The notes under the pieces are model-generated. The model searched no databases, was not told where the DNA came from, and worked only from the letters and a program-made list of their open reading frames with translations. 64,000 nt of DNA from Thermoprotei archaeon (GTDB lineage: Archaea > Thermoproteota > Thermoprotei > Thermoproteales > B15-G16): positions 1 to 64,000 of the forward strand of contig QMRC01000003.1 of assembly GCA_003649205.1 (NCBI GenBank). Direction: 5' to 3'. A program made the position numbers and the translations under genes. How positions within the stretch are numbered: position 1 is the stretch's first letter; every line of letters starts with the position of its first letter. This document shows, piece after piece, positions 5,549 through 17,684 of the stretch.

Positions 5549-5723
5549 AATGTATCATCTGGACACACATACTGCAACGAAGATAAAAGCTCTTCGAGAC
5601 GCTAAATTCACAAACAATGGCACAATGCAATCGCCACATGGTGTGTCTCCTGCAATGTATCGCTTAGTGTTCATAAGCAAAGGTGATATATCTAGAATGT
5701 CTGTAAGGACCTTTCGTAGTAGC

Positions 5724-6899
5724 TTAAGGCAATTCCCCTAAGAGGCGAGTTATAAGTCTGTAGCTTACACCATACTTCCATAGTACATGTCCTACTACCT
5801 CACGATATTTCTTCAACTCGAGTTGTACAGCATTAAGCAGTTTCTCTAATTCAGTAACCTTGACTTCACTCTCATATTTCTCGGCTAATTTGCTTACTGC
5901 AACTATGTCACCAACTAGGAGATGGCGTAAGACCTCGCAACATGGGGTCTCCCCTACGAGTGCAGCAGATGCTATGGCTATAGCACCAAGCAGCAAGTCC
6001 GTAGGTACATTGCGTAGTTTGCTAGCTAGGAACAGTAGTGTCTTACCTGGACGTGCTACCTTATCTGTTGACCAGTCACTAAGAAAGTTATCTATTCGAA
6101 CTATGTCTAATCTCCTTAGATCGTTAGTTAGTCGTGGCTTAAGTTCACGATTACAACGCTCAGCTGGTAGATTAATACCTGAAGTACTCAGAAACTCACT
6201 TGCTACATTGACTATTTCATCACGAGTAAATACAGCATTTTCAGCAAGCTCCATAACCTTAGGCAGCAATAGCTTCCTAAGAATATAACCTAGTAGCTGC
6301 AGGTACCTTTCAAACTTATCCTCCCCCGGAAGTATGAACAATGCTTGAAGCATTACTGGATTAAATTTTCTGATAACTTTCCTCACTCTGTCACCAACCC
6401 GAGCAATCTGCTCGATACGAGCAGTAAATAGCTCCTCTACCCTCAAGCCTACTTCATCTGAAAGCCGTTGAACCGAACCTGGTATAACTTCCACACCAAA
6501 CTTCTCCCTAAGTTCATGCCTAGTAATACCAAGGCTCTTGAGTACTTTAAGTAGCTCACCTTCACTTAGTGTTTGCAGGCGATCTTTAAGTCCGAGTAAG
6601 CATTGGTGAGGCTCAACCTCTATTCTGTAAGGCCATGAATCTCCATACTTAGAATCTATTGGCCAGAATTCGGTCTTATCTTCAAACTTCCTAACTATCT
6701 TCCCGAGAAATACTATTGCACCAATTGGCAAATTAGCATAAATGAAAACGATGTGTCCAGCTTGCAGTTCTCTTTCCCAAAGTCTATAGAGACCGCTATG
6801 AAATCCCCATAAGAACTTACCATTCATAACCCACTTCCTGATACTGTAGAGTACATTATCTGCATGACCTTTGAGTAGCCAATACACAACCATCCCCAA
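5724..6899 (-). CDS. EVE/PUA-like domain protein with helical C-terminal region
   Basis: YWLL...LWGF...LQAGHIVFIYA...IVFLGKIV...FWP...WPYRIEVEP is the typical EVE pattern; starts 5 bp after the mcrC stop. Confidence 0.75.
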   Translation of the reverse strand: MGMVVYWLLKGHADNVLYSIRKWVMNGKFLWGFHSGLYRLWERELQAGHIVFIYANLPIGAIVFLGKIVRKFEDKTEFWPIDSKYGDSWPYRIEVEPHQCLLGLKDRLQTLSEGELLKVLKSLGITRHELREKFGVEVIPGSVQRLSDEVGLRVEELFTARIEQIARVGDRVRKVIRKFNPVMLQALFILPGEDKFERYLQLLGYILRKLLLPKVMELAENAVFTRDEIVNVASEFLSTSGINLPAERCNRELKPRLTNDLRRLDIVRIDNFLSDWSTDKVARPGKTLLFLASKLRNVPTDLLLGAIAIASAALVGETPCCEVLRHLLVGDIVAVSKLAEKYESEVKVTELEKLLNAVQLELKKYREVVGHVLWKYGVSYRLITRLLGELP

Positions 6900-6904
6900 C
6901 AGAG

Positions 6905-8227
6905 CTATGAGACAATTACCTCTCTTAACAGATTTTCTTCGAAATACCTAGGTCTAACAACTATGAAGAATAAGTCCACTGATACATCATTGAAGTACGT
7001 CTCAATTCGTGGAGGATACCTAGCTCTTCCTAAACAGGTGATAGCTGCTCTTAGTGCTCTATCTTTAGCCACATCAATGATATAGGCTAGGAGGCGAAGT
7101 GTATCACTTAGTCTCAGCAACTTTCTACTCAGATCCCGGTACTTAGCCTCAAGCACAATGACTTTATTATCAGTAACCACTGCTATATCCGGTCTAGGCA
7201 AAGAACCGCTGATGGATTTTACCAGCTTGGAACAAGGTGCTTTATTTAAGTATAGCCTACAAGGCCCTAACCTGATAACATTTAGCTGCTCCAATACTGG
7301 GTGTTCTCTGAACTCTTTGCTAAGTACCTCGAGAACTTTGCTAAGTACATATAGCTCATAGACCTTTGTGCTGGGGTAAAGTAGTAGTTCAAAGAGACCA
7401 GGTCTATATGATGGAGTTAGCTGAATTAAGGTGGCTATACGCTCCAAGAAGTCTATATTCACCTCACCTAATTCAGCATACGACACTAATGCTGGTACTG
7501 ACATCTCAGTGGTAATGGTGGATATAAGTGAAGTAGTGAGTGTACGAAGTCTCTCACCTAATGAACGCAAGAAATCGCTTCGAGTAGACACTTCGGACAC
7601 GATACCTATGATATTAGCAAGTGCCTTGTAGACAAGCACCAGGGTAGCAAGAAGTGTTGTGTACTTTCGTGTATTAAATATCTGCTTCGGCTTAAGTAGT
7701 GCTAAGTCGCTAGGACTTACCTTCACCAATGTGCCATGTTTTGAAGGTATGTACTGGAGGATGTACCAAGGCTCTGACTGAATGTAGTGCTGTATTAACC
7801 GTAATACATGCGTAAGTAGTTGAGGTAAAATGAGTGCTTCACCTGTACGTTCATGTGTGGTAATTAGGTAGGTATGTGCTGTTACAAGATGTAGTAAGTC
7901 ACGCACCGTGCTACCGTATATCACATCAAGCATGTTAAGAAACTCATGCCCAATCTTTGGCTCAAAAACCAAGCATATATTGTATCTAGGTATGGAAACT
8001 ACACCAACCCACTGACCTGTATACACTTTGGTCCCTACCACTTCAGGCAGCCGCGACTCAATTTCCAGACCATACTTCTCAAATACCCGTTGTTTATATT
8101 CACGAAGAAAATCTCTAAGCTCACATATCATTAACTTGAGCTGTGATTCACTAACATCTAGTTCTCTACATAGCTTACGTAAATCAACTATAGAGTCCTC
8201 ACGGTGATGAAATACTCGGTAGTTCAT
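6905..8227 (-). CDS. mcrC: McrC-like PD-(D/E)XK nuclease
   Basis: GQWVGVV...EPKIG N-terminal McrC pattern, VYELYV, PRPDIAV...VLEAKYR, and LLAY. ATG at 8227 overlaps the mcrB end. Confidence 0.8.
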   Translation of the reverse strand: MNYRVFHHREDSIVDLRKLCRELDVSESQLKLMICELRDFLREYKQRVFEKYGLEIESRLPEVVGTKVYTGQWVGVVSIPRYNICLVFEPKIGHEFLNMLDVIYGSTVRDLLHLVTAHTYLITTHERTGEALILPQLLTHVLRLIQHYIQSEPWYILQYIPSKHGTLVKVSPSDLALLKPKQIFNTRKYTTLLATLVLVYKALANIIGIVSEVSTRSDFLRSLGERLRTLTTSLISTITTEMSVPALVSYAELGEVNIDFLERIATLIQLTPSYRPGLFELLLYPSTKVYELYVLSKVLEVLSKEFREHPVLEQLNVIRLGPCRLYLNKAPCSKLVKSISGSLPRPDIAVVTDNKVIVLEAKYRDLSRKLLRLSDTLRLLAYIIDVAKDRALRAAITCLGRARYPPRIETYFNDVSVDLFFIVVRPRYFEENLLREVIVS

Positions 8228-9488
8228 ACATAATGGCCTCAGCAGCACGGTATGTGAGGCTACTTGAACTAAAGTTATTCTCAAGGAACTTCATGAAGTT
8301 TCTAAATGCTATAGTACGAGGACTGCTTCCAAGGAACTGCTCAATCTTAAGCATTGGGATTAGGGAAGAGAGCTGAGGTAGCAATAATGATGCTATGGCG
8401 AGATCTAGTAACGCCTCATCTGATACTGAGACTAACGCTATATTCTGACTTATACACCTAGCCAATAACAGAGAGATGAAATCAACTAATATGGAAACTC
8501 CTAGATCAATCTTCAGATCATTGAGTGCTACGGCATAAATGCCGGCAAAGCTCTCAATTAACTTACTACTAGTATCTCTCAATCTGTCTAGTAATTTGAC
8601 TACTTCATCAAATTCAATACGTACCAAACAGGGTACATCATACTCGGGTAATAGTGATTTAGTGAACCTAAAGGTAAGGAACTCAACTTCTTTCGAGACT
8701 AGTGCTTCAACATACTCCTGCAAGGAAGTGAACACAGAGTTTTTATCCAGATGAAAATTGTCATATAACTGCACAATGAGGTTCTCTATATCGAGCCCTG
8801 GATCGTATTTCATATATGGAGGAATTACAGGAATAGGTATCAATCTTCTACTTAAAGCATAACCGATCTTAAATAGGTGTGCTCTATCAACAACATTCAT
8901 AGTGCCAATTATTCTGAAAGACCGAGGAATTGGGATACCACAAACCCTACTACCTAGGATATTACGCAACTTCACCATTAACTCCTTACACCTGTCGACT
9001 GATACTTCAAGACAGTTAGCTAGTACTGTGATATCTTCCTCGGCAAGCTTCTCCTCATCCAATATATCAGGGGGTAACACAGCAATGTTGTAGTATTCAG
9101 GATCGAGAGCCGTAAATACTCTACCTAGTGCGACCTCAATATTACATCTATTGACTTCATCGAGAACATACCATAGAGGGCCCTTACCCTCAATAATTCT
9201 AAGCCAAGTACCTAGGATAGCAATACCGAGAGAACCTAACCTCTTAACCAGTACATCTCCATGTCCTTTAACCTCTCTCAGCTCATTGAAGCATGTAAGC
9301 AGTTCATAAGTTAACTCACTACGACCAGTCTCGAGAATAGGATGCGCACCGGTCAGCTCGGCAGCAACATCGATAGCTAACTTCGTTTTACCAACTCCAG
9401 GAGCGCCAACCAATAATACGGATTTACCACTTAGTAAAGCAATAGTGATTAAATTTCTCAGCCGAGTCATAACTTCCCACACTACCAC
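8199..9488 (-). CDS. mcrB: McrB-like AAA+ GTPase lacking an N-terminal DNA-binding domain
   Basis: Walker A GAPGVGKT near residue 28, Walker B VLDEVNR, McrB signature GTMNVVDR (NxxD), ALSRR. Confidence 0.85.
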   Translation of the reverse strand: MVVWEVMTRLRNLITIALLSGKSVLLVGAPGVGKTKLAIDVAAELTGAHPILETGRSELTYELLTCFNELREVKGHGDVLVKRLGSLGIAILGTWLRIIEGKGPLWYVLDEVNRCNIEVALGRVFTALDPEYYNIAVLPPDILDEEKLAEEDITVLANCLEVSVDRCKELMVKLRNILGSRVCGIPIPRSFRIIGTMNVVDRAHLFKIGYALSRRLIPIPVIPPYMKYDPGLDIENLIVQLYDNFHLDKNSVFTSLQEYVEALVSKEVEFLTFRFTKSLLPEYDVPCLVRIEFDEVVKLLDRLRDTSSKLIESFAGIYAVALNDLKIDLGVSILVDFISLLLARCISQNIALVSVSDEALLDLAIASLLLPQLSSLIPMLKIEQFLGSSPRTIAFRNFMKFLENNFSSSSLTYRAAEAIMYELPSISSP

Positions 9489-9605
9489 TGATACTGCCAG
9501 TGTACAATGTTTTACACTTCACTGCTTGAGTAAAGTACATCAGCTCTGGTAAATATACCTGAAATTAAGCTATTTCTTGACTGGTGACTATACCTAGCAG
9601 TTCTG

Positions 9606-10133
9606 CTACTTAACAGCTCTTTGTCTCAGTTTCTCTATTTCTGCTGGTATGTGTATCAGTAACCACCTTACTTTGCCTTTCTCTACTAGGTCTTTGACCC
9701 ATTTCTCTCTTTGGCTTAGTGTTGTCGTTTTGCCGCTTTTTACCTCTATGAATGTGATTTCTTCTGGTTTTCCTTCTGTGAATCCTTTGAATGCTATGTA
9801 GTCTATTGGTGAGCCTATGAATCTTAGGTCTTTGGGATTTATGCCGTACTCCATGCAGATTAGTATTGGTGCTAGTTGCTCACCTACTTTACCGATTATC
9901 GTTGCTATGGATCTCTTGATAGCATCTTCTCTAATTCTCTCTTCCTCCTCTATTCTCCATTTTTCGAATAGTAGTTTTGCTCTTTCGGTGGCTTCTTTCT
10001 CGAGTTCTCTACTTCTCCATTGGTTGAATAGTTGTCTTGCTCTGTGCTCTACCTCTCCTTTGAGCTTGATGTATTTTGTGGTGATGTAGAGGAGTGTAAT
10101 TACTAGGATTAGGATTATGATTAGGTCTATCAC
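9606..10133 (-). CDS. TM-anchored Holliday-junction-resolvase-like endonuclease (Endonuc_Holl family)
   Basis: N-terminal TM; GKVGEQLAP, DLRFIGSPIDYIAFKG, FIEVKSG. Confidence 0.85.
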   Translation of the reverse strand: MIDLIIILILVITLLYITTKYIKLKGEVEHRARQLFNQWRSRELEKEATERAKLLFEKWRIEEEERIREDAIKRSIATIIGKVGEQLAPILICMEYGINPKDLRFIGSPIDYIAFKGFTEGKPEEITFIEVKSGKTTTLSQREKWVKDLVEKGKVRWLLIHIPAEIEKLRQRAVK

Positions 10134-10238
10134 TTTTCTTCACCGAGCTTTCTCCTTGTTTGGGTGCTTATTATGGATTAGCTTTGCTCTGGGTTGTGGT
10201 TTTGTGTTTTTATTCGCTAGTGGGTGTGGTGTTTGTGA

Positions 10239-10787
10239 TTAGGTGTTTTCTGAGAGTAGTTTGAGTATTGTTGTTAGTCCAGGGAATGCTTGTTCTAGGT
10301 GTTTCATGCTTGCTCTCTTGAGTAGTTCTTCTTTTGTTGCTGCTTCGCCTATTACTTCTCTTAATTTTCTGATGTTTTCTTCTATGTTGCCTTTCTCTGT
10401 GAATCCTGAGATAGCGATGTAGATTGTTACTTGCTTTGGTCCTTTGCGGCATGTTATTACTAGTGCGTGGTCATTAAGTTCCTTTATGTCTAGTACTTCG
10501 AAGCCGTATTGTTTCAATGTGCTTGAGAATACGTCCTTGTTGGGTACGTGTTCTCTATCGATTATGATTAAGCAGTACCTGGGTCTGGTTTTGTGTAGGA
10601 GTGTGGATAGTTGCTCTATTACTCCTCTTACTCCTGTTCTCGTTGGTAGTGTTGGTATTATGATTACTTTTCCTCTGTGGTTAAACTTCTCTGCTATTAT
10701 CTTCAGTACTCTTACCTCTTCTACACCGTTACCTGTTAGGAGTACTGTATCTACTGTTCTTGGTACTTGTCCTCTCGTTACTTTCAT
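10239..10787 (-). CDS. Hypothetical ATPase-partner protein (DUF3226/TOPRIM-like)
   Basis: ATG at 10787 overlaps the ATPase stop (ATGA); IIIDRE and GNIEENI acidic motifs. The longer ORF in the track is an upstream over-extension. Confidence 0.55.
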   Translation of the reverse strand: MKVTRGQVPRTVDTVLLTGNGVEEVRVLKIIAEKFNHRGKVIIIPTLPTRTGVRGVIEQLSTLLHKTRPRYCLIIIDREHVPNKDVFSSTLKQYGFEVLDIKELNDHALVITCRKGPKQVTIYIAISGFTEKGNIEENIRKLREVIGEAATKEELLKRASMKHLEQAFPGLTTILKLLSENT

Positions 10788-11782
10788 AGTTCGAGTAGGT
10801 CGATTAGTTTCCTTATGTCTATTCCACGATTGAAGTACTCTTCTAGTTCGTTTGGTGTTAGTGTTGTGTGTTCTACTATGTCGTCTGGTGTTTTTCTCAG
10901 GATTATTACTTGGCTGTCTTCTGGTGATTGATATGTTAGTTCGAGGAGGACGTCTATGCTGTGTGTTGTGATTACTACTTGCCAGTTCTTTGATGTTAAC
11001 CACTTCATCACTACCTCGATGAGTCCTGGGTGTGCTGCTACTTCCATGTCATCCCATAGTACTAGTCTTGGTTTTAGATACTCGAGTGCTAGTGCTGTGA
11101 GGCATATTCGTTCTATACCGTCTCCTAAATCTGCTACGTGGATGTAGAGTGGCCCGATTTCCTCACTTACCTCCTTTCTCAGCTTCAACTCATTTCTCTC
11201 AATTAGGATTTCTGTGTACTTGTCGTAGACTGTGGGGTTGATTAGTTCGGTGACTATCTTCCTGTGTGCTCCGTACTTGGTTAGTGTGGACCAGGTTGTG
11301 GGTTCTTTTAGCTTGTTTCGGAGTTCCTTGAGGAATTCGGTGCTATTTGGTATGTAGAGTGTGAGGTTGTGTACCTCATCCTTACTTATGTTGAGTAGCT
11401 TCGCTATGTAGTCAATATATGTCTCTACATATGCTTCTCTATTGTTTATTACTATTGATTCTAGGGTACCTGCTGTTAGGGTTACTGTCACTACTTCGTC
11501 ATTGAATAGCCGGTACCTTATTCTCGCTGTTCCACTATATCCATAGATTAGACACGATTTTCCTCCATGTAGCTGTGTTATGAAATCTAGTCTGCTTACT
11601 TCAGTTAGCGGTGCTGTGTATCCGGAGGGTGTTGCTAGCAGGTACAGTGCTTCTAGAATTGTTGTTTTTCCTGTGTTGTTTCTGCCTATGATGATGTTGA
11701 ATTTCTTTAATTTGATGGGCTTTGCTAGTTTCCTTACTCCACGAAATTCCTCTATGTCTAGCTCTTTGATGACTATTGTCAA
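10784..11782 (-). CDS. ABC-type (AAA_15/AAA_21, OLD/AbiEii-like) ATPase
   Basis: IEEFRG, GRNNTGKT, LGDG signature, LWDDMEVAAHP, ITTHS. Confidence 0.85.
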   Translation of the reverse strand: MTIVIKELDIEEFRGVRKLAKPIKLKKFNIIIGRNNTGKTTILEALYLLATPSGYTAPLTEVSRLDFITQLHGGKSCLIYGYSGTARIRYRLFNDEVVTVTLTAGTLESIVINNREAYVETYIDYIAKLLNISKDEVHNLTLYIPNSTEFLKELRNKLKEPTTWSTLTKYGAHRKIVTELINPTVYDKYTEILIERNELKLRKEVSEEIGPLYIHVADLGDGIERICLTALALEYLKPRLVLWDDMEVAAHPGLIEVVMKWLTSKNWQVVITTHSIDVLLELTYQSPEDSQVIILRKTPDDIVEHTTLTPNELEEYFNRGIDIRKLIDLLEL

Positions 11783-11846
11783 GTTAATTCACCTACTTTC
11801 GTAATGATTCTGGATCTACTCTCATTTAGTGTTGTGGTTTGCTTTA

Positions 11847-12551
11847 TCAGGTATCTTGCTTTTTCTTGAACTTTAGGTATGCCTTTATGGTTATGGCTGC
11901 TATTGCTATGAAGTATCCTCTATCATCCATGTCCTTACTGAAGAGCCTTATCCCGATCTCGTATGCCCTATCTAGTTCCTCTATTGTCATTTCGTTGATG
12001 TCTTTGCTGAAGAGTTTCTTTAGGAATTCCAACTCTTCCTTGGTTAGTGGGTTTGGTGTTGCTGTGGTGTATGCTTCAAGTACTTCTCTTACTCTGTGTC
12101 TTAGGTACGTTACTTCCTTTTCCTCTAGCAGTCCCTTTAGTCCTAGGTACTCGATAACGACTTCGTGAGTATGTGTTGTTGCTCTTGCTATGGTCTTAAG
12201 CATTTTCTCCATCCTAACATCAATGTAATTTCTTAGATCCTCGAACTTTGTATCAACATACTTCTTGAACTCGTCAAATCTCCTATCTATCTCCCTGAAT
12301 CTCTCTTCTATTCGTTCGAATCTACTATCTATCTCTTCAAATCTCTTCTCTATTTGCTCGAATCTTTTGTCTATTTGCTTGAATCTCTCATCGATGCTTC
12401 TAAATCTCTCGTCAATGGTCTTAAACCTCTCATCAATTAGCTTGAATCTACTGTCTATCTCTGTGAATTTTCTTCCTAGCCAGTACGCTAGTGTTCCTAT
12501 TGAGGTTACTACTGTGAGTACTGTTGCTACTGTGTCCCACGGTATTTGCAC
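11847..12551 (-). CDS. TM-anchored coiled-coil heptad-repeat protein
   Basis: N-terminal TM followed by nine FxxIDxR-type heptads. Confidence 0.8.
   Translation of the reverse strand: MQIPWDTVATVLTVVTSIGTLAYWLGRKFTEIDSRFKLIDERFKTIDERFRSIDERFKQIDKRFEQIEKRFEEIDSRFERIEERFREIDRRFDEFKKYVDTKFEDLRNYIDVRMEKMLKTIARATTHTHEVVIEYLGLKGLLEEKEVTYLRHRVREVLEAYTTATPNPLTKEELEFLKKLFSKDINEMTIEELDRAYEIGIRLFSKDMDDRGYFIAIAAITIKAYLKFKKKQDT
12279..12467 (-). repeat. Coding tandem repeat, 9 x 21 bp, degenerate
   Basis: FTEIDSR/FKLIDER/FKTIDER/FRSIDER/FKQIDKR/FEQIEKR/FEEIDSR/FERIEER/FREIDRR. Confidence 0.85.
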
Positions 12552-12614
12552 TGTGTCACCTAGGTATGTCTCAAGTTGCTCACACTTATGTACTTGATGT
12601 TCTTGCTCTTGTCC

Positions 12615-13619
12615 TCATCTCTGTATCAGTAGTTTCTTTAGGATGTCTCTGTATGCAGGTATTTGCCATGCGTAGTACTTCCCTATCCCTAGCTCTAGAT
12701 CACTTGGTACTTCGGTATTGTGTAGTGTTGTCACGTACTTGTAGATGAGTAGGTTCTCTTCAGTGAGTATTTGCTGTAGTTGCTCAGTTCTTGGTGTTGC
12801 CTCTGTGTGTACTGTATCTGGATCCTCTATGGCCTTCATCAACTCATTCTCTAGATTTCTCGAGCGTATGGTAGTTAGTACTTTCGTGAGCCTTCTCTCT
12901 AAGGTATTTAACCAGCTACCTATATCCCATCTATGTACGTGTGCTATCTCTATTAGTGCTCTTGGATTCCCACCTGTTACCCGCCATAGCTCCTCTCTGA
13001 GGTTGAGGTTCGGTGGTTTTAGTTCCTGTACTAGTTCGTAGAAGGGTTCTCTCGGTAAATTCCATATCAACTTCACTACTGTGTACGTGTGTCTCATTAC
13101 TAGGTCTAGGCTCTTACCTTCACTTGTCGTAGCTACTATGAGTATACTCTTTGGACTATACCTCCTATGTAGCTTACCTATTAGCTCGTACAACCACTTT
13201 ACATACCACTCAACTCTATCTAGCCCTATGGCTCTAGTGATGTCATCTACAATCACTATCAATGACCTTCCTTCAATACTCACTTTCTCAGCTATCTTCT
13301 CAACTATGAGTGTTATCCTATCTGCTAAGTACGTACCTAGCGGTCCTATGGCTTGCAATGCTACTTCCCTTACGAACTTCCTTACCTCTTCAATCACTGG
13401 ATTCAACACTATTGCTGTCTCTGGATCCCTCCTCTCTAGTGCATCTATGTAGATTGTCACTCCGTGCACTCTCTTGATGAATTCTCTCAGTAACCTCGTT
13501 TTTCCACAACCTTCAGGACCGTAGAGGTATATTGGTAGTGGACTTCCGTAACTAGCTAGTTCACGTAGTGTCTCTAGTTCTCGTTCTCTATCTACGAACC
13601 TTGGTTCAATTACTAACAT
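12615..13619 (-). CDS. Archaeal ATPase (ATPase_2/STAND-like)
   Basis: FVDRERELETL, YGPEGCGKT, IVDD, TGGNPR. Confidence 0.85.
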   Translation of the reverse strand: MLVIEPRFVDRERELETLRELASYGSPLPIYLYGPEGCGKTRLLREFIKRVHGVTIYIDALERRDPETAIVLNPVIEEVRKFVREVALQAIGPLGTYLADRITLIVEKIAEKVSIEGRSLIVIVDDITRAIGLDRVEWYVKWLYELIGKLHRRYSPKSILIVATTSEGKSLDLVMRHTYTVVKLIWNLPREPFYELVQELKPPNLNLREELWRVTGGNPRALIEIAHVHRWDIGSWLNTLERRLTKVLTTIRSRNLENELMKAIEDPDTVHTEATPRTEQLQQILTEENLLIYKYVTTLHNTEVPSDLELGIGKYYAWQIPAYRDILKKLLIQR

Positions 13620-13637
13620 TACTCAGCACCTAGTGCT

Positions 13638-14054
13638 CTAGGGTGCTAGTACCATCTTGAGTAAGATCCCTATTATCCCTATGAGGATTGGTACGTTAAA
13701 CGCGATGAAGATCTTGATCAATAAACTAACTTGTCCCTCCAATCTAGCTACTCTTGCCTCTAATCTCGCTGCTCTATCACCTAATCTACCTAACTCACTC
13801 CTTATTTCCGCTATTTCACTTCTTACTTCAGCTATTCTCTTGTCAATGTACTCCTGTAGCTCCTTCCTAAGAGCTTCAAGATCTCTCTTCGTTGCTACCT
13901 CCCTCATCACACCCTCAACTATTGCCAACCTTATGTCCGGTACCGTAACGAGAAGCTCAGCTAACTTCTTAAGAGCTGAAGGATCCTTCTCGAAAAGAGC
14001 AACAATATCACTCGCCGAAAGCCCCCTCTCACCCAAGAAATACCCACCTACCAT
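13638..14054 (-). CDS. Coiled-coil protein with C-terminal TM
   Basis: VATKRDL motif, heptads, hydrophobic C-terminus. Confidence 0.75.
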   Translation of the reverse strand: MVGGYFLGERGLSASDIVALFEKDPSALKKLAELLVTVPDIRLAIVEGVMREVATKRDLEALRKELQEYIDKRIAEVRSEIAEIRSELGRLGDRAARLEARVARLEGQVSLLIKIFIAFNVPILIGIIGILLKMVLAP

Positions 14055-14157
14055 ATAACACAGACCTAACAGCTAAATAAGTCTAGACAACATACATGAA
14101 GAAGCACAGAACAGAAATACCATAGACCTAGCTCAAGAACAGACACCTAAACAATGC

Positions 14158-14389
14158 AAAAAGCCCCGGGCCCTGACCGGTCCGAAACACTTAAGTATCA
14201 GCACTGAGCTACACTGAGGGCCCCGGTGCTTGGCGCCGCGTCTGCGGTCGCCAAGTCCTTAGTCATCTTCCGCTTCCTCACCAAGCCCCCTCATCATCCC
14301 GGCCAGGGCCCGGGCCTCATCAATTTACAGATCAACCCGAGCCCTGACCAGGACTCAGGGCCACTGAACAACTGAGCACTAGCACTACG
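14158..14389 (-). ncRNA. Putative structured ncRNA (omega/reRNA-like) downstream of the TnpB-like gene
   Basis: GC-rich island with hairpins at 14229-14255 (cttggcg-ccgc/gcgg-cgccaag) and 14341-14361 (gccctga/tcagggc), UGAUGA boxes, and a terminal T5 tract (14158-14162). Position matches TnpB omega RNAs. Confidence 0.55.
14166..14185. repeat. Inverted-repeat arm 1 (pairs with 15207-15226)
   Basis: ccgggccctgaccggtccga is the reverse complement of tcggaccggtcaggacccgg at 19 of 20 positions. Confidence 0.9.
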
Positions 14390-15202
14390 CTACTTCAGAA
14401 CATACTTAACAGCTCTACTCCTCGCTACATTAATCGCAGCCATCTCATCTCTATCCCACACACGACCGCACTTAGTACATCTCAACTCTCTATAGCTCAG
14501 TACCTCAGTTACTGAATCACACACCGGACAGTACCTCGATGTACCAGCTGGCTCAATAGCAACCACCCTAATACCCTTCCTCGTGCAGTGAACTAATGCC
14601 CTCATCAACTTCGTGTACCTCCAACCCCTCACCCTATCAGTTACCTCACTACGCACATCGACATACGGTAACCACTCAATCTTCGCAATTACGTCGTACT
14701 TCTCGCTCAACCTATTTAGACAAGCCATTAACCTATTCAGTAGCTTCCTCAACTCAACTACGTACCACTTCCTCCATCTCCTAACCTTCTTCCTCAGATA
14801 CAGCTCTAGATCGTACACAAACAACCAATTCGGTACAACACCGTACTCCTCAACTAGCTCAATGACGTAGCTGAATACACTCGGTATCGGTCTACAGGAT
14901 CTCTTAATCTCCCTCCAAGCCCATGACCCTCTCTCAACCTTGACATCTCTGTACCTCATAACGAACGGGTACTTCTCAACGAACTTCCTCAAACCCTCCT
15001 TAACGTAGCTAACTAGATTCGGCACCTCTACCACACCCCTAATCACTACGTAGTACTCACCCTCACCAACATCAATAAGCTTCGGCACAAAACCTCGTTC
15101 ACTGACTACGCTACAGACGTCAAGCAACATCTCTCGATCATGAACTCTGTACGCAGCAATCACTGACCTCACATTGTAGTCAAACCCAACCACAAGCTGC
15201 AT
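14390..15202 (-). CDS. tnpB: TnpB-like RuvC + zinc-ribbon nuclease, N-terminally minimal (alternative start at 15325)
   Basis: RuvC-I VGFDYN, RuvC-II KIEWL, PAGTSRYCPVC...CTKCG zinc ribbon, RuvC-III DRDEMAAINV. Confidence 0.8.
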   Translation of the reverse strand: MQLVVGFDYNVRSVIAAYRVHDREMLLDVCSVVSERGFVPKLIDVGEGEYYVVIRGVVEVPNLVSYVKEGLRKFVEKYPFVMRYRDVKVERGSWAWREIKRSCRPIPSVFSYVIELVEEYGVVPNWLFVYDLELYLRKKVRRWRKWYVVELRKLLNRLMACLNRLSEKYDVIAKIEWLPYVDVRSEVTDRVRGWRYTKLMRALVHCTRKGIRVVAIEPAGTSRYCPVCDSVTEVLSYRELRCTKCGRVWDRDEMAAINVARSRAVKYVLK

Positions 15203-15206
15203 TCTC

Positions 15207-15226
15207 TCGGACCGGTCAGGACCCGG
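15207..15226. repeat. Inverted-repeat arm 2, 4 nt upstream of the ATG at 15202
   Basis: See arm 1. The nearby leader also has a hairpin at 15296-15320 (acccgacg/cgtcgggt) and three cggacc copies. Confidence 0.9.
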
Positions 15227-15331
15227 CTTCGGTCCCTCCTCGGCAGTGCCTCCGGACCTATAACCCCCTTCATCGGACCTAACCTCTGGGGATCCACCCG
15301 ACGCCTTATCGACGTCGGGTTTCATCCACCT

Positions 15332-17554
15332 TCACTCACCTGAAGAACCTTGATAACCACTCTCCTTTACTTCAGGTACATCGACACTCAATCCATAGTA
15401 CTCTAGAACTGCCTTCCCGAAGTTCGTCAACCTACCTGACCTAGCAAATATTGGGTATGACCTCTCCCTCAGTAACTTAATTACGTCCTCAACATCGTGC
15501 TCTTGCACGAACTGGATCAAGTACTCTCTCTTACCCCTAGGCACACCGTACTTCCTAGCTAATTCACGCAACTTACTTAAGTCAACCCTCCTCAACTTCA
15601 ACCCCCTAGGAGCAGCAAGCTCAAGGTAATTCGTCTTAACCTTAGCGTAGAGACCGTCCCTGTAGTACAGACACTCACCAATCCTCAAAGTCTGAACCTC
15701 TCTAGGCTCAATACCATACTCCTCAACAATTCTCAACTCACTAGGTTCAGTGAGCCTGAAGAACAAGACATTACGACACTGACCACGAACAACATCACTC
15801 ACCTTAGCAATAGACTGATCAATGAGAATTAGGTAGAGACCACACTTCCTACCCTCCCTAGCCAACTTAACGAGAATAGACTCACCACGAGCATGTACCG
15901 GAGCAACCCTATGAACTTCATCAACAACGAGAACAGTACCAACACCCAACCTCCCCAACCTATAGAGAAACTCCATGAACGTAAGAGCAAAGACAGCCTT
16001 AGCAACCTCAGAATCCATACCACTCAAATCAACAACGTAAACACCACAACCGAGATCACTCAACGTAAAGTCACCAGGTCTAAAGTACCTAACAAGAGGC
16101 TCCAACCTCCTCAAAGCAGCAGCAACAGCAGACCTGTACTCACTACCCTCAGGAAACTCAAAGTACATCCCCCTCAACACATCAACAAGCTCACGAAGAC
16201 ACAGCTCACGAACCCTATCCCTAGCCCTAGTAAGAACCTCAACAACAATAGGAGAGAACGAACCCCTCTCAAAACCATAGCAGTACACCAGAGCATCCTC
16301 AACAACCTCAATACCCCTCCAGAAACCAAGCTGAAGAGGATCAAGAGCGAGATCTCGAGGAGGCTCAAGAACAACAGCACCAGGCAAATTAACGAAAGCA
16401 CCCACGAAGTCAATGACCAAAACCCTAGAACACCTAGACAACTCCCTCACCAAGTAAGCAACAGTACTAGACTTACCACTACCAGTCATACCAACAACGA
16501 GAGTATGACCATCAGGAACAAAGTACACAGCATCACCACAAACCCTAAACCCAAGAACCCTCCTACCAAGCACAACACCCCCACCACCAACATCGAGCTC
16601 TAGATTACGTAGAAGCTGAGAAACAAGAGAAGAAACAACATCACCAACAACACACTCACGAGCACACAACTGATGAACAAACCTCCTCCACCAAACACAG
16701 AGCAAAAACCTAAGCAAACCACTCAACCTACAATCAAACACAACAGAGTAAAGACCAACCCTAACAACACACTCACACCTCCTAACAAAGTAACCACAAA
16801 CACCCTCAACAAACGAATCCCTAGCACCACCACGACCAAGAGAACGAAACCAACCAAACAACCCCCTCCAAACACCAGAGTAGAAACGAGACAAATCCCT
16901 CAACCCACACCTCTCAAGAACAAGAACATAGCAACCACCCCTACTCAAAACCCTAACACCAACACCAGAAGAACATCCAGAACCATCACCCCTCCGAAAA
17001 CCAATAGAGGACAAGACAGAAACCCAAAACCAATCACCAAGAACAAAATCGAAATCACTCAACTCAACATCAAGACCAAGACCAGAGACAACACCAGCAC
17101 AGTAACGAACAACACCCTCAACCCAACTACGAGAACAGAAGAACCTATGCAACTCAACAATGAGAAAAACCCTACCGTAGACCTGCACTAAGAAGATCTT
17201 AGCAACATAGGGAACACACCTAAACAACGTAGTGACATCAGGAACATGAGAGAAATTCCTCACCCTAAACACGAGCAGAATACAGGACCACAAACCATGA
17301 CCACAAACATACACACCACGATCCACACAACGAGGACGAGAAGTCAGGTAAAGACACAGGAAATGAAGGAACTTGGGGAAGGTAAAGAACCAGAGTAACC
17401 AGTACGGAATAGCGAGTACGAGGTACGTGGGAGTTCCTTCGGTGAGGGAGATGTAGCTGAGCCAGGTACCGGGGAATGTGTAGAGTGTGAGTAGTGTTAG
17501 GGTTAGGAGCTTGATTGGTAGGGTGTACCACATGGTTCTTCCCGAGATCTCCAC
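15332..17554 (-). CDS. Membrane-anchored HerA/VirB4-like (DUF87, CedB-like architecture) ATPase
   Basis: N-terminal TM helices; HTLVVGMTGSGKS, VLVIDFVG, VLVVDEVHR, REGRKCG, IDQS. Confidence 0.8.
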   Translation of the reverse strand: MEISGRTMWYTLPIKLLTLTLLTLYTFPGTWLSYISLTEGTPTYLVLAIPYWLLWFFTFPKFLHFLCLYLTSRPRCVDRGVYVCGHGLWSCILLVFRVRNFSHVPDVTTLFRCVPYVAKIFLVQVYGRVFLIVELHRFFCSRSWVEGVVRYCAGVVSGLGLDVELSDFDFVLGDWFWVSVLSSIGFRRGDGSGCSSGVGVRVLSRGGCYVLVLERCGLRDLSRFYSGVWRGLFGWFRSLGRGGARDSFVEGVCGYFVRRCECVVRVGLYSVVFDCRLSGLLRFLLCVWWRRFVHQLCARECVVGDVVSSLVSQLLRNLELDVGGGGVVLGRRVLGFRVCGDAVYFVPDGHTLVVGMTGSGKSSTVAYLVRELSRCSRVLVIDFVGAFVNLPGAVVLEPPRDLALDPLQLGFWRGIEVVEDALVYCYGFERGSFSPIVVEVLTRARDRVRELCLRELVDVLRGMYFEFPEGSEYRSAVAAALRRLEPLVRYFRPGDFTLSDLGCGVYVVDLSGMDSEVAKAVFALTFMEFLYRLGRLGVGTVLVVDEVHRVAPVHARGESILVKLAREGRKCGLYLILIDQSIAKVSDVVRGQCRNVLFFRLTEPSELRIVEEYGIEPREVQTLRIGECLYYRDGLYAKVKTNYLELAAPRGLKLRRVDLSKLRELARKYGVPRGKREYLIQFVQEHDVEDVIKLLRERSYPIFARSGRLTNFGKAVLEYYGLSVDVPEVKESGYQGSSGE

Positions 17555-17684
17555 ATTCCTGAATTCTTATGGGGGTCTACAGGAAAGCTGTATTGTGGGG
17601 ATGTGACTTGCCCTGTGGTGGTTTGGTGTCTGTGGGTGGTGGGGTTATTAGGGTGTTTGGTGTCTACTTACCGGGTGTTTTTGT

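Follow-up and report, generated by a model that had tools for sequence, protein, structure and literature searches.

We analyzed a 64,000-nucleotide (nt) stretch of DNA from a hot-spring archaeon (Thermoprotei archaeon; assembly GCA_003649205.1, contig QMRC01000003.1, forward-strand positions 1 to 64,000; referred to here as the window), which carries on its minus strand a small gene of the TnpB type (mini-TnpB). The locus is a self-contained module composed of a structured leader, a 270-amino-acid (aa) RuvC/zinc-ribbon protein, and a structured trailer. The GC-rich untranslated leader (positions 15203 to 15331) extends from the stop of a HerA-like gene at 15332 to the ATG at 15202, the open reading frame (ORF) occupies positions 14390 to 15202, and the trailer (positions 14156 to 14389), a GC-rich module resembling the omega-RNA of TnpB, ends at a T5 tract (positions 14158 to 14162). 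Our central observation is that two arms of this module, one beside the start codon and the other at the end of the trailer, are complementary to each other. A preliminary description of the same DNA had read these arms as (a) a guide directed against the 5' region of its gene, (b) a helix enclosing the ORF, or (c) terminal inverted repeats; overall, its interpretation is partly supported by the results presented below.

The mini-TnpB protein

The longest ORF at the locus (14390 to 15325) encodes 311 aa, and its only Pfam domain is PF07282 (Cas12f1-like TNB; E = 1.9e-13). When 1.84 billion representative proteins were searched exhaustively without a profile, 195 matched at E values of ≤0.001, including 9 at ≤1e-10. 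Among these matches is a family of eight proteins (P0002 to P0008 and P0011; 261 to 293 aa), seven of which align over their full length, starting at residues 44 to 46 of the 311-aa ORF. Because the relatives align from these residues, we assign the start to the ATG at 15202, as the preliminary description had done, and the protein to a length of 270 aa. It is the smallest member of the TnpB enzyme lineage encountered in this analysis.

In an alignment of nine sequences, residues G6, D8, and N10 (RuvC-I), E176 (RuvC-II), and D252 (RuvC-III) are invariant, as are the four zinc-ribbon cysteines (C228, C242, and C245 among them). The catalytic D-E-D triad of TnpB is present, together with a zinc ribbon (TNB) between RuvC-II and RuvC-III, and the protein opens directly at the RuvC-I strand (GxDxN, residues 6 to 10). 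An AlphaFold (AF2) model built on this alignment reached a pLDDT of 87.8 and a pTM of 0.83 (a single-sequence model with a pLDDT of 39 was discarded). The best Foldseek matches of the model are all TnpB, Cas12 (i.e., Cas12f), or Fanzor proteins, with ISFba1 TnpB at the top (E = 2.4e-6). Structural alignment with VIA-align placed residues 1 to 268 of the model on residues 187 to 387 of ISFba1 TnpB (8iaz; Z = 12.7; 190 aligned residues) and on residues 184 to 377 of ISDra2 TnpB (8h1j; Z = 11.1; 170 aligned residues), and in neither alignment does the 270-aa protein have anything corresponding to TnpB residues 1 to approximately 185 (i.e., the WED/REC half). Since the model aligns only to C-terminal TnpB residues, the protein is, on the modeled structure, the half of TnpB that comprises RuvC and the zinc ribbon; it carries a helical insertion and lacks the WED/REC half.

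The NCBIfam profile guided_TnpB scored 48.6 bits against a cutoff of 100, with residues 136 to 261 matching profile positions 262 to 388 of 389. No conserved neighboring ORF able to supply the missing WED/REC half was found in the family loci examined. The association with TnpB that had been proposed from the sequence alone thus holds for the RuvC/zinc-ribbon core and the D-E-D residues, and it has to be narrowed to that of a half-size relative in which WED/REC is absent.

Complementary arms and structured RNA

On the minus strand, the arm at 15226 to 15207 reads CCGGGTCCTGACCGGTCCGA and the arm at 14185 to 14166 reads TCGGACCGGTCAGGGCCCGG. As the preliminary description had stated, 19 of the 20 positions are complementary, with a perfect run of 14 bp, and the single mismatch, U(15221)-G(14171), is a wobble on the minus-strand RNA; both the sequence itself and a repeat search returned the same coordinates. 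Additional G-U pairs between 15206 to 15205 and 14186 to 14187 extend the helix to 22 bp, so that the 5' arm in full (F_leader; 15205 to 15226) spans positions -2 to -23 upstream of the AUG and the 3' arm (R2; 14166 to 14187) forms the 3'-terminal tail of the transcript. The earlier placement of the arms is also correct: 4 nt (GAGA) separate the 20-nt core of F_leader from the ATG, and R2 is followed by GGC and the T5 tract. Archaeal RNA polymerase is stopped by oligo-T tracts, and the T5 tract is, judging by its sequence, a likely transcription stop. Since it lies 3 nt past the tail and the next gene apparently has its own AT-rich promoter-like stretch (identified by eye), R2 is placed at the end of the transcript.

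The complementarity of the arms is real and far above chance. The repeat search scored the pair at 95% identity, a value reached by no other of the 19 inverted pairs in the window (at least 18 nt long and at most 1,500 nt apart); the next-best pairs reached 89%, and one of these lies in the same locus. The ungapped helix score of the arms is 57, compared with 26.9 ± 3.7 for the shuffled leader, and 0 of 200 shuffles reached 57. The 15-nt core CCGGKYCCTGRCCGG has three matches in the window (0.00 expected), and in the 2.07-Mb genome it occurs in the mini-TnpB locus and its mirror image in contig C3 and nowhere else. Contig C3 (291,428 nt), of which the window is the first part, is identical to its reverse complement throughout; it therefore contains 145,714 nt of unique sequence, and each window feature is present twice in the assembly. 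An apparent second copy of the locus at C3:276029-277329 (100% identical) was accordingly discarded as an artifact of this fold-back contig and not counted as independent.

The leader and trailer have G+C contents of 0.57 to 0.68 (trailer, 0.58 to 0.63), compared with 0.43 to 0.52 in the ORFs; structured RNAs of AT-rich thermophiles stand out as GC islands in the same way. The leader has a fold energy of -57.1 kcal/mol (z = -2.0), and the trailer has a minimum free energy (MFE) of -117.3 kcal/mol (z = -4.5), with none of 200 shuffles being as stable. A leader hairpin, ACCCGACGUCGAUAAGGCGUCGGGU (15296 to 15320, minus strand), appears in the single-sequence fold. Hairpins resembling it, each preceded by a 5' flank like CAGUGUGG, were recognized by eye in the leaders of L065, L068, L069, and L072. 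The plan of the trailer was compared by eye in four divergent relatives (L065/L066, L068, L070, and, in part, L069). Its first stem begins at the stop codon and closes directly before GGGAUGAUGA (L065, L068, L069, and L070), with a stem sequence that differs in each relative in single-sequence folds; a hairpin with an AUGAC loop, a further GC hairpin, and finally the pattern CUGACC...CUAAUAAG follow. In the window, the last motif common to the trailers of the relatives (14190 to 14201, minus strand; read by eye) is CUGAUACUUAAG. The end motif is CTGACCTCCCTATTAAG in L065, CTGACC..CTAATAAG in L068 (where the contig stops), CTAATAAA..CTGACC in L070, and CTGACCTAGCTAAT in a paralogue from the same genome as the window.

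Of 80 fetched loci, 11 contain the sequence GGGATGATGA; each of these 11 belongs to the mini-TnpB family, and the ordinary TnpB loci lack it. As with an omega-RNA, a structured RNA on the sense strand accompanies the 3' end of the gene and is conserved with the protein family. RNAalifold, run on a MAFFT alignment of the region around the first stem (P1), returned three trivial pairs and no consensus from an alignment that is not structure-aware; because of this outcome, covariation in P1 is read by eye only. Outside the repeated motif described below, no direct similarity between leader and trailer was detected (44 of 300 shuffles attained the score of 20). The best Rfam match was the C/D-box RNA sR18 (20.5 bits, against a gathering threshold of 45; 16.7 to 17.9 bits for the relatives). 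Given these subthreshold scores and a box spacing unlike that of the ordinary C/D small RNAs of the genome, an archaeal C/D-box RNA was rejected as an identity for the trailer. The elements AUGAUGA and CUGA may form a k-turn.

The arms belong to a four-copy, 15-nt GC-rich motif with alternative pairings, a feature absent from the preliminary description. In transcript order, the copies are F_leader (15226 to 15212), R1 (14351 to 14336), F_int (14313 to 14299), and R2 (14180 to 14166). The trailer stem P1, which is equivalent to the first stem of the relatives, is formed by R1 as its 5' strand (14334 to 14352) and F_int as its 3' strand (14299 to 14317, directly 5' of GGGAUGAUGA at 14300 to 14291), the latter being a second possible partner of R2. 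R2 is a direct copy of R1 (13/14), F_leader matches F_int at 13 of 15 positions, and the inverted pair F_int:R2 extends over 19 nt (89%). The four substitutions between copies all remain G-U pairs on the minus-strand RNA and would be A-C on the opposite strand (by eye), an all-wobble pattern that is approximately a 1-in-16 outcome under random transitions.

Duplex energies at 37 and 80°C are -51.5 and -23.6 kcal/mol for F_leader:R2, -48.9 and -21.0 kcal/mol for F_int:R2, -44.5 and -20.1 kcal/mol for R1:F_int, and -32.1 and -12.8 kcal/mol for F_leader:R1. On the basis of these four values, the outer helix combined with P1 gives the best energy sum. In the equilibrium fold of a full-transcript model (1,176 nt; 15331 to 14156), F_leader:R2 is the dominant pairing of the arms, with mean pair probabilities of 0.978, 0.961, and 0.955 at 37, 70, and 85°C, respectively, and R1:F_int stays at 0.986 to 1.0 across 37 to 85°C. 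A helix enclosing the ORF, as in option (b), is thus the structure predicted for the full transcript. The trailer folded alone behaves differently. At 37°C, R2 is predicted to pair with F_int (probability of 0.992; also in the MFE structure). At 70 and 85°C, R1:F_int prevails (0.94 and 0.98) and F_int:R2 falls to 0.055 and 0.004. At 80°C, positions 14174 to 14187 are mostly unpaired (0.45 to 0.93), and positions 14168 to 14172 are paired elsewhere.

These trailer-only folds bear on option (a), under which the trailer would be an omega-RNA with R2 as its guide, and the resulting ribonucleoprotein would bind the gene's own leader DNA or mRNA and repress it in the manner of TldR. A mostly unpaired tail in the 80°C model is consistent with such a guide, as is the fact that the tail begins 3 nt past the last shared trailer motif, where TnpB guides begin. 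Sequences past this motif are unrelated between relatives, as expected for guides, the D-E-D residues and zinc ribbon are retained, and a match over the gene start would be a sensible roadblock site. However, the WED/REC lobes, with which TnpB grips the scaffold and the heteroduplex, are missing from the protein, and it falls below the guided_TnpB cutoff. R2, moreover, looks like structure and not like a free spacer, because it is a 13/14 copy of scaffold strand R1 and pairs with F_int. An active nuclease would do harm if it were directed at the chromosome that encodes it, and a single-copy element offers no derivable target-adjacent motif. To our knowledge, an oligo-U stop directly after the guide is not the usual TnpB arrangement, which also counts against this option. 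We regard a self-aimed guide as unlikely. The more ambitious proposal that this is a working RNA-guided protein with a fixed 3' guide at its own leader, forming a one-gene autoregulatory circuit in which the flanking structured RNA replaces the WED/REC lobes, seems to us quite improbable.

Distribution of the helix and of the gene family

Paired arms, which had been suggested as something to look for in homologous loci, are absent from all six of the other family loci (the paralogue on contig C1, L065, L068, L069, L070, and L071), none of which has a leader-trailer helix scoring above shuffles. Likewise, none of 24 ordinary archaeal TnpB loci has such a helix (scores of 19 to 40, compared with 57); the top-scoring one (L007; score of 40) has a classical pair of end hairpins. 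Since 0 of 6 family loci and 0 of 24 ordinary TnpB loci show one, the leader-tail helix is, as far as these sequences go, lineage-specific. The six family loci say little about close relatives because their proteins are only 23 to 29% identical.

Closer comparisons were provided by strain L064, by a genome of the same genus (G001), and by DNA contigs from four other sequencing runs. L064 is 97.8% identical over 3,314 nt, with 0 mismatches in 129 nt of leader versus 16 in 813 and 56 in 2,372 nt of ORFs (2.0 to 2.4%). G001 has 3 mismatches in the 252 nt corresponding to window positions 14401 to 14150, compared with 72 substitutions in 2,038 aligned columns of its flank (approximately 3.6%). Wherever the contigs reach the arms, they show no difference from the window: F_leader is covered by runs X2 and X3, and R2 by runs X2, X3, and X4. 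G001 also has an unaltered R2. In run X3, positions 14175 to 14316 (142 nt) contain seven changed letters and one gap (approximately 5.6%), with both arms intact.

Identity with the other strains ends at 14150. Beyond this point, G001 has a 2,081-nt cassette (G001:C89:253-2333) in place of window positions 14023 to 14149; a contig of run X2 bridges the junction, and contigs of runs X3 and X4 break off there in loose ends. The cassette carries two ORFs, both on the opposite strand, encoding 177 aa and an ATPase-like protein of approximately 400 aa, and the window has instead 127 nt and a different N terminus of a coiled-coil gene. Two further candidate rearrangements were dismissed. A recombination point at the stop codon, where L064 ends and 11 nt before which G001:C89 starts, is explained by loose ends consisting of Nextera adapter, and a joint in run X2 that skips 14327 to 14435 was not trusted (depth of 4.3; 27 nt on one side).

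These comparisons also bear on option (c), i.e., that the arms are terminal inverted repeats marking the two termini of a transposon and recognized as DNA. Inverted 20-mers around a gene of an insertion sequence-associated type, together with the matching end hairpins of the ordinary TnpB locus L007, make this idea a natural one. Nevertheless, no direct repeat (i.e., target-site duplication) accompanies the arms, and conserved sequence continues outside both of them. Approximately 105 nt of GC-rich leader, identical in L064 and including a hairpin common to relatives, lie outside the 5' arm, and the identity with G001 passes the 3' arm by 16 nt. The many identical copies with target-site duplications that plain transposon ends would predict were not found: the element is single copy in the genome, and neither further copies nor empty sites bounded at 15226 and 14166 turned up in the genome or the four runs, which also showed the element in no other context. 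The genome also lacks a Y1 transposase and ordinary TnpB, the arms are unlike the self-folding hairpins of IS200/IS605 ends, and the mismatches suit RNA pairing and not DNA pairing. We reject this option as scarcely credible.

The mini-TnpB family is rare, amounting to about ten clusters of 261 to 293 aa among the 1.84 billion representatives; wherever their source is visible, it is an archaeal or hot-environment assembly. A word-index protein search returned the query alone. When 401 genomes of the phylum were sampled, only that of the window and G373 had full-length family matches, and among 120 genomes of the class, 3 had full-length and 2 had partial matches (E ≤ 1e-22). Contig scans located one family locus in genome contigs, seven in metagenomes, and none in viral contigs. 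The genome of the window (93.8% complete) contains one copy of the mini gene and the paralogue on C1, with no ordinary TnpB and no match to the Y1 transposase (TnpA, PF01797). This paralogue (G000:C1:186135-186948, plus strand; 26% identical) has an AT-rich leader, no leader-trailer pairing, and a much shorter trailer that fits within approximately 90 nt downstream and consists of GGUGAUGAUG, 5 nt, CUGACCUAGCUAAU, a hairpin, and T5; its 3' segment has no genome match of at least 14 nt with E < 1.

The neighbors of the family gene differ at every locus examined. In the window, the gene lies downstream of a HerA-like ATPase gene (15332 to 17554; PADLOC mad8/HerA), and other ATPase genes are found at 12615 to 13619 (PF01637), 10784 to 11782 (AbiLi/AriA/OLD-like), and 8199 to 9488 (AAA_5); from its gene content, this run of ATPases (5700 to 17600) looks like a defense island. 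Two family loci adjoin tRNA genes (L071:1757-1845 and L070:3350-3475; Rfam scores of 45.9 and 48.6 bits, respectively). The one in L071 is on the same strand as the family gene, approximately 220 nt upstream of the gene start, and such neighbors hint that the module may insert near tRNA genes. The pattern TTAAG-N-G-N-TTCGGAC is common to window positions 14180 to 14194, where the 3' arm begins, and the trailer of L071; the two proteins are 21% identical, and the pattern could be due to chance or could be a conserved end motif. Elsewhere in the genome, two GC-rich stretches of approximately 90 nt (G000:C2 near 53858, minus strand, and C6 near 48753, plus strand) start with GGGGGAUGAUGA and end with GCUGACCC; by sequence, they are probably paralogous C/D-box-like small RNAs.

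Possible closing of the transcript and comparison with known systems

The reading that we tentatively prefer is that a helix formed in cis between the 5' and 3' ends of the transcript masks translation initiation and provides a lineage-specific form of self-control. We infer that both arms lie on a single transcript, that they pair in vivo, and that the resulting helix has a regulatory effect. The full-length transcript would fold shut when its last 22 nt ahead of the oligo-U stop pair with positions -2 to -23 before the AUG, and the closed form would hide the translation-initiation region and tuck in the 3' end. Opening would follow from removal or occupation of the tail, for example, if the 3' end were trimmed, if the trailer were cleaved from the mRNA, or if the mini-TnpB protein bound the trailer. 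Protein output would thereby be tied to the state of the gene's own RNA.

Several observations weigh against this closing helix. The equilibrium folds ignore ribosomes, proteins, and co-transcriptional order, and the energies at 70 to 85°C are extrapolated. In the six other family loci, 56 to 185 of 200 shuffles reach the score of the locus, so that the pairing is not a family trait. The leader and trailer change less than their flanks only weakly (p of approximately 0.06 and 0.02, respectively, by a Poisson estimate), and there is no covariation signal because the available strains keep both arms identical. The strains that share the helix are, moreover, too close to show selection, a point that favors viewing the complementarity as a functionless by-product. 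In that case, the P1 stem motif would have been duplicated or gene-converted to the leader and the 3' end, and the resulting complementarity would be tolerated. The near identity of the arms to P1 strands and the lack of pairing in the other family loci and in the ordinary TnpB loci of related archaea agree with such an origin. It is less easily reconciled with two independent copies that are complementary over 22 nt, 5 to 7 nt past the shared 15-nt core, and that sit exactly at the edge of the start codon and at the end of the transcript. Every difference between copies is wobble compatible on the sense RNA, and the arms are intact where the middle of the trailer diverged. A by-product is, in our assessment, somewhat unlikely.

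If the helix is functional, mini-TnpB would be an example of a TnpB-type gene sensing the RNA that it produces, either through a fold-back switch or through a self-aimed guide, and would illustrate how genes of this type stay quiet after losing mobility. The family, a rare archaeal one of approximately 265 to 290 aa, is noteworthy in that it has kept the TnpB/Cas12 catalytic core, lost the RNA-binding half, and retained conserved structured RNA at both ends. How small an RNA-guided nuclease can be is a question that depends in part on whether the flanking RNA takes the place of the lost lobes.

The helix encloses both the ORF and the trailer and brings their ends together, which would also suit a processing stem, comparable to those of rRNA, from which an archaeal nuclease and ligase excise or circularize an ORF-plus-trailer RNA. 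Circular isoforms of IS200/IS605 omega-RNAs, i.e., processed and end-joined molecules, have been described in Halobacterium and Sulfolobales without an explanation of how they arise (PMC12558985). As presented there, the circles contain omega-RNA only, without the ORF, and they also lack bulge-helix-bulge motifs, whereas mini-TnpB is known here from DNA alone. The mini-TnpB helix is continuous over 22 bp and has no bulge-helix-bulge (i.e., two 3-nt bulges 4 bp apart inside the helix), with just a 2-nt bulge past its outer end (by eye). We consider such a processing or circularization stem highly improbable.

TldR proteins resemble the self-guide alternative in their mode of action, being domesticated, nonmobile TnpB relatives with a fixed 3' guide for a promoter-proximal site (PMC10705468). 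TldRs are bacterial, have kept the RNA-binding lobes, have lost the catalytic residues, and target other genes. In contrast, mini-TnpB has intact catalytic residues, and its tail matches its own leader.

With TnpB and its omega-RNA (IS200/IS605 and IS607 elements; e.g., ISDra2 and ISFba1), mini-TnpB shares a RuvC domain interrupted by a zinc ribbon, the conserved D-E-D residues, and a structured RNA that immediately follows the ORF on its coding strand. It differs in that the protein corresponds to the C-terminal half alone, in 270 aa, without a WED/REC lobe and below the NCBIfam cutoff. Its RNA begins at the stop codon, whereas that of TnpB begins inside the ORF, and the locus has a conserved structured 5' leader in addition. 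It is present in single copy in a genome without TnpA and not in a transposon with defined ends, and its tail matches its own leader and not an empty target site.

For the closing-helix mechanism that we prefer, the most instructive comparison is with hok mRNA of plasmid R1, which undergoes fold-back inhibition through fbi-tac pairing: the 3' end covers the 5' translation-activating region until 3' processing takes place. The hok gene is bacterial, forms part of a toxin-antitoxin system whose other partner is an antisense RNA, and has no sequence or protein in common with mini-TnpB, but its fold-back is the closest analogue of the mechanism that we propose for the mini-TnpB transcript.

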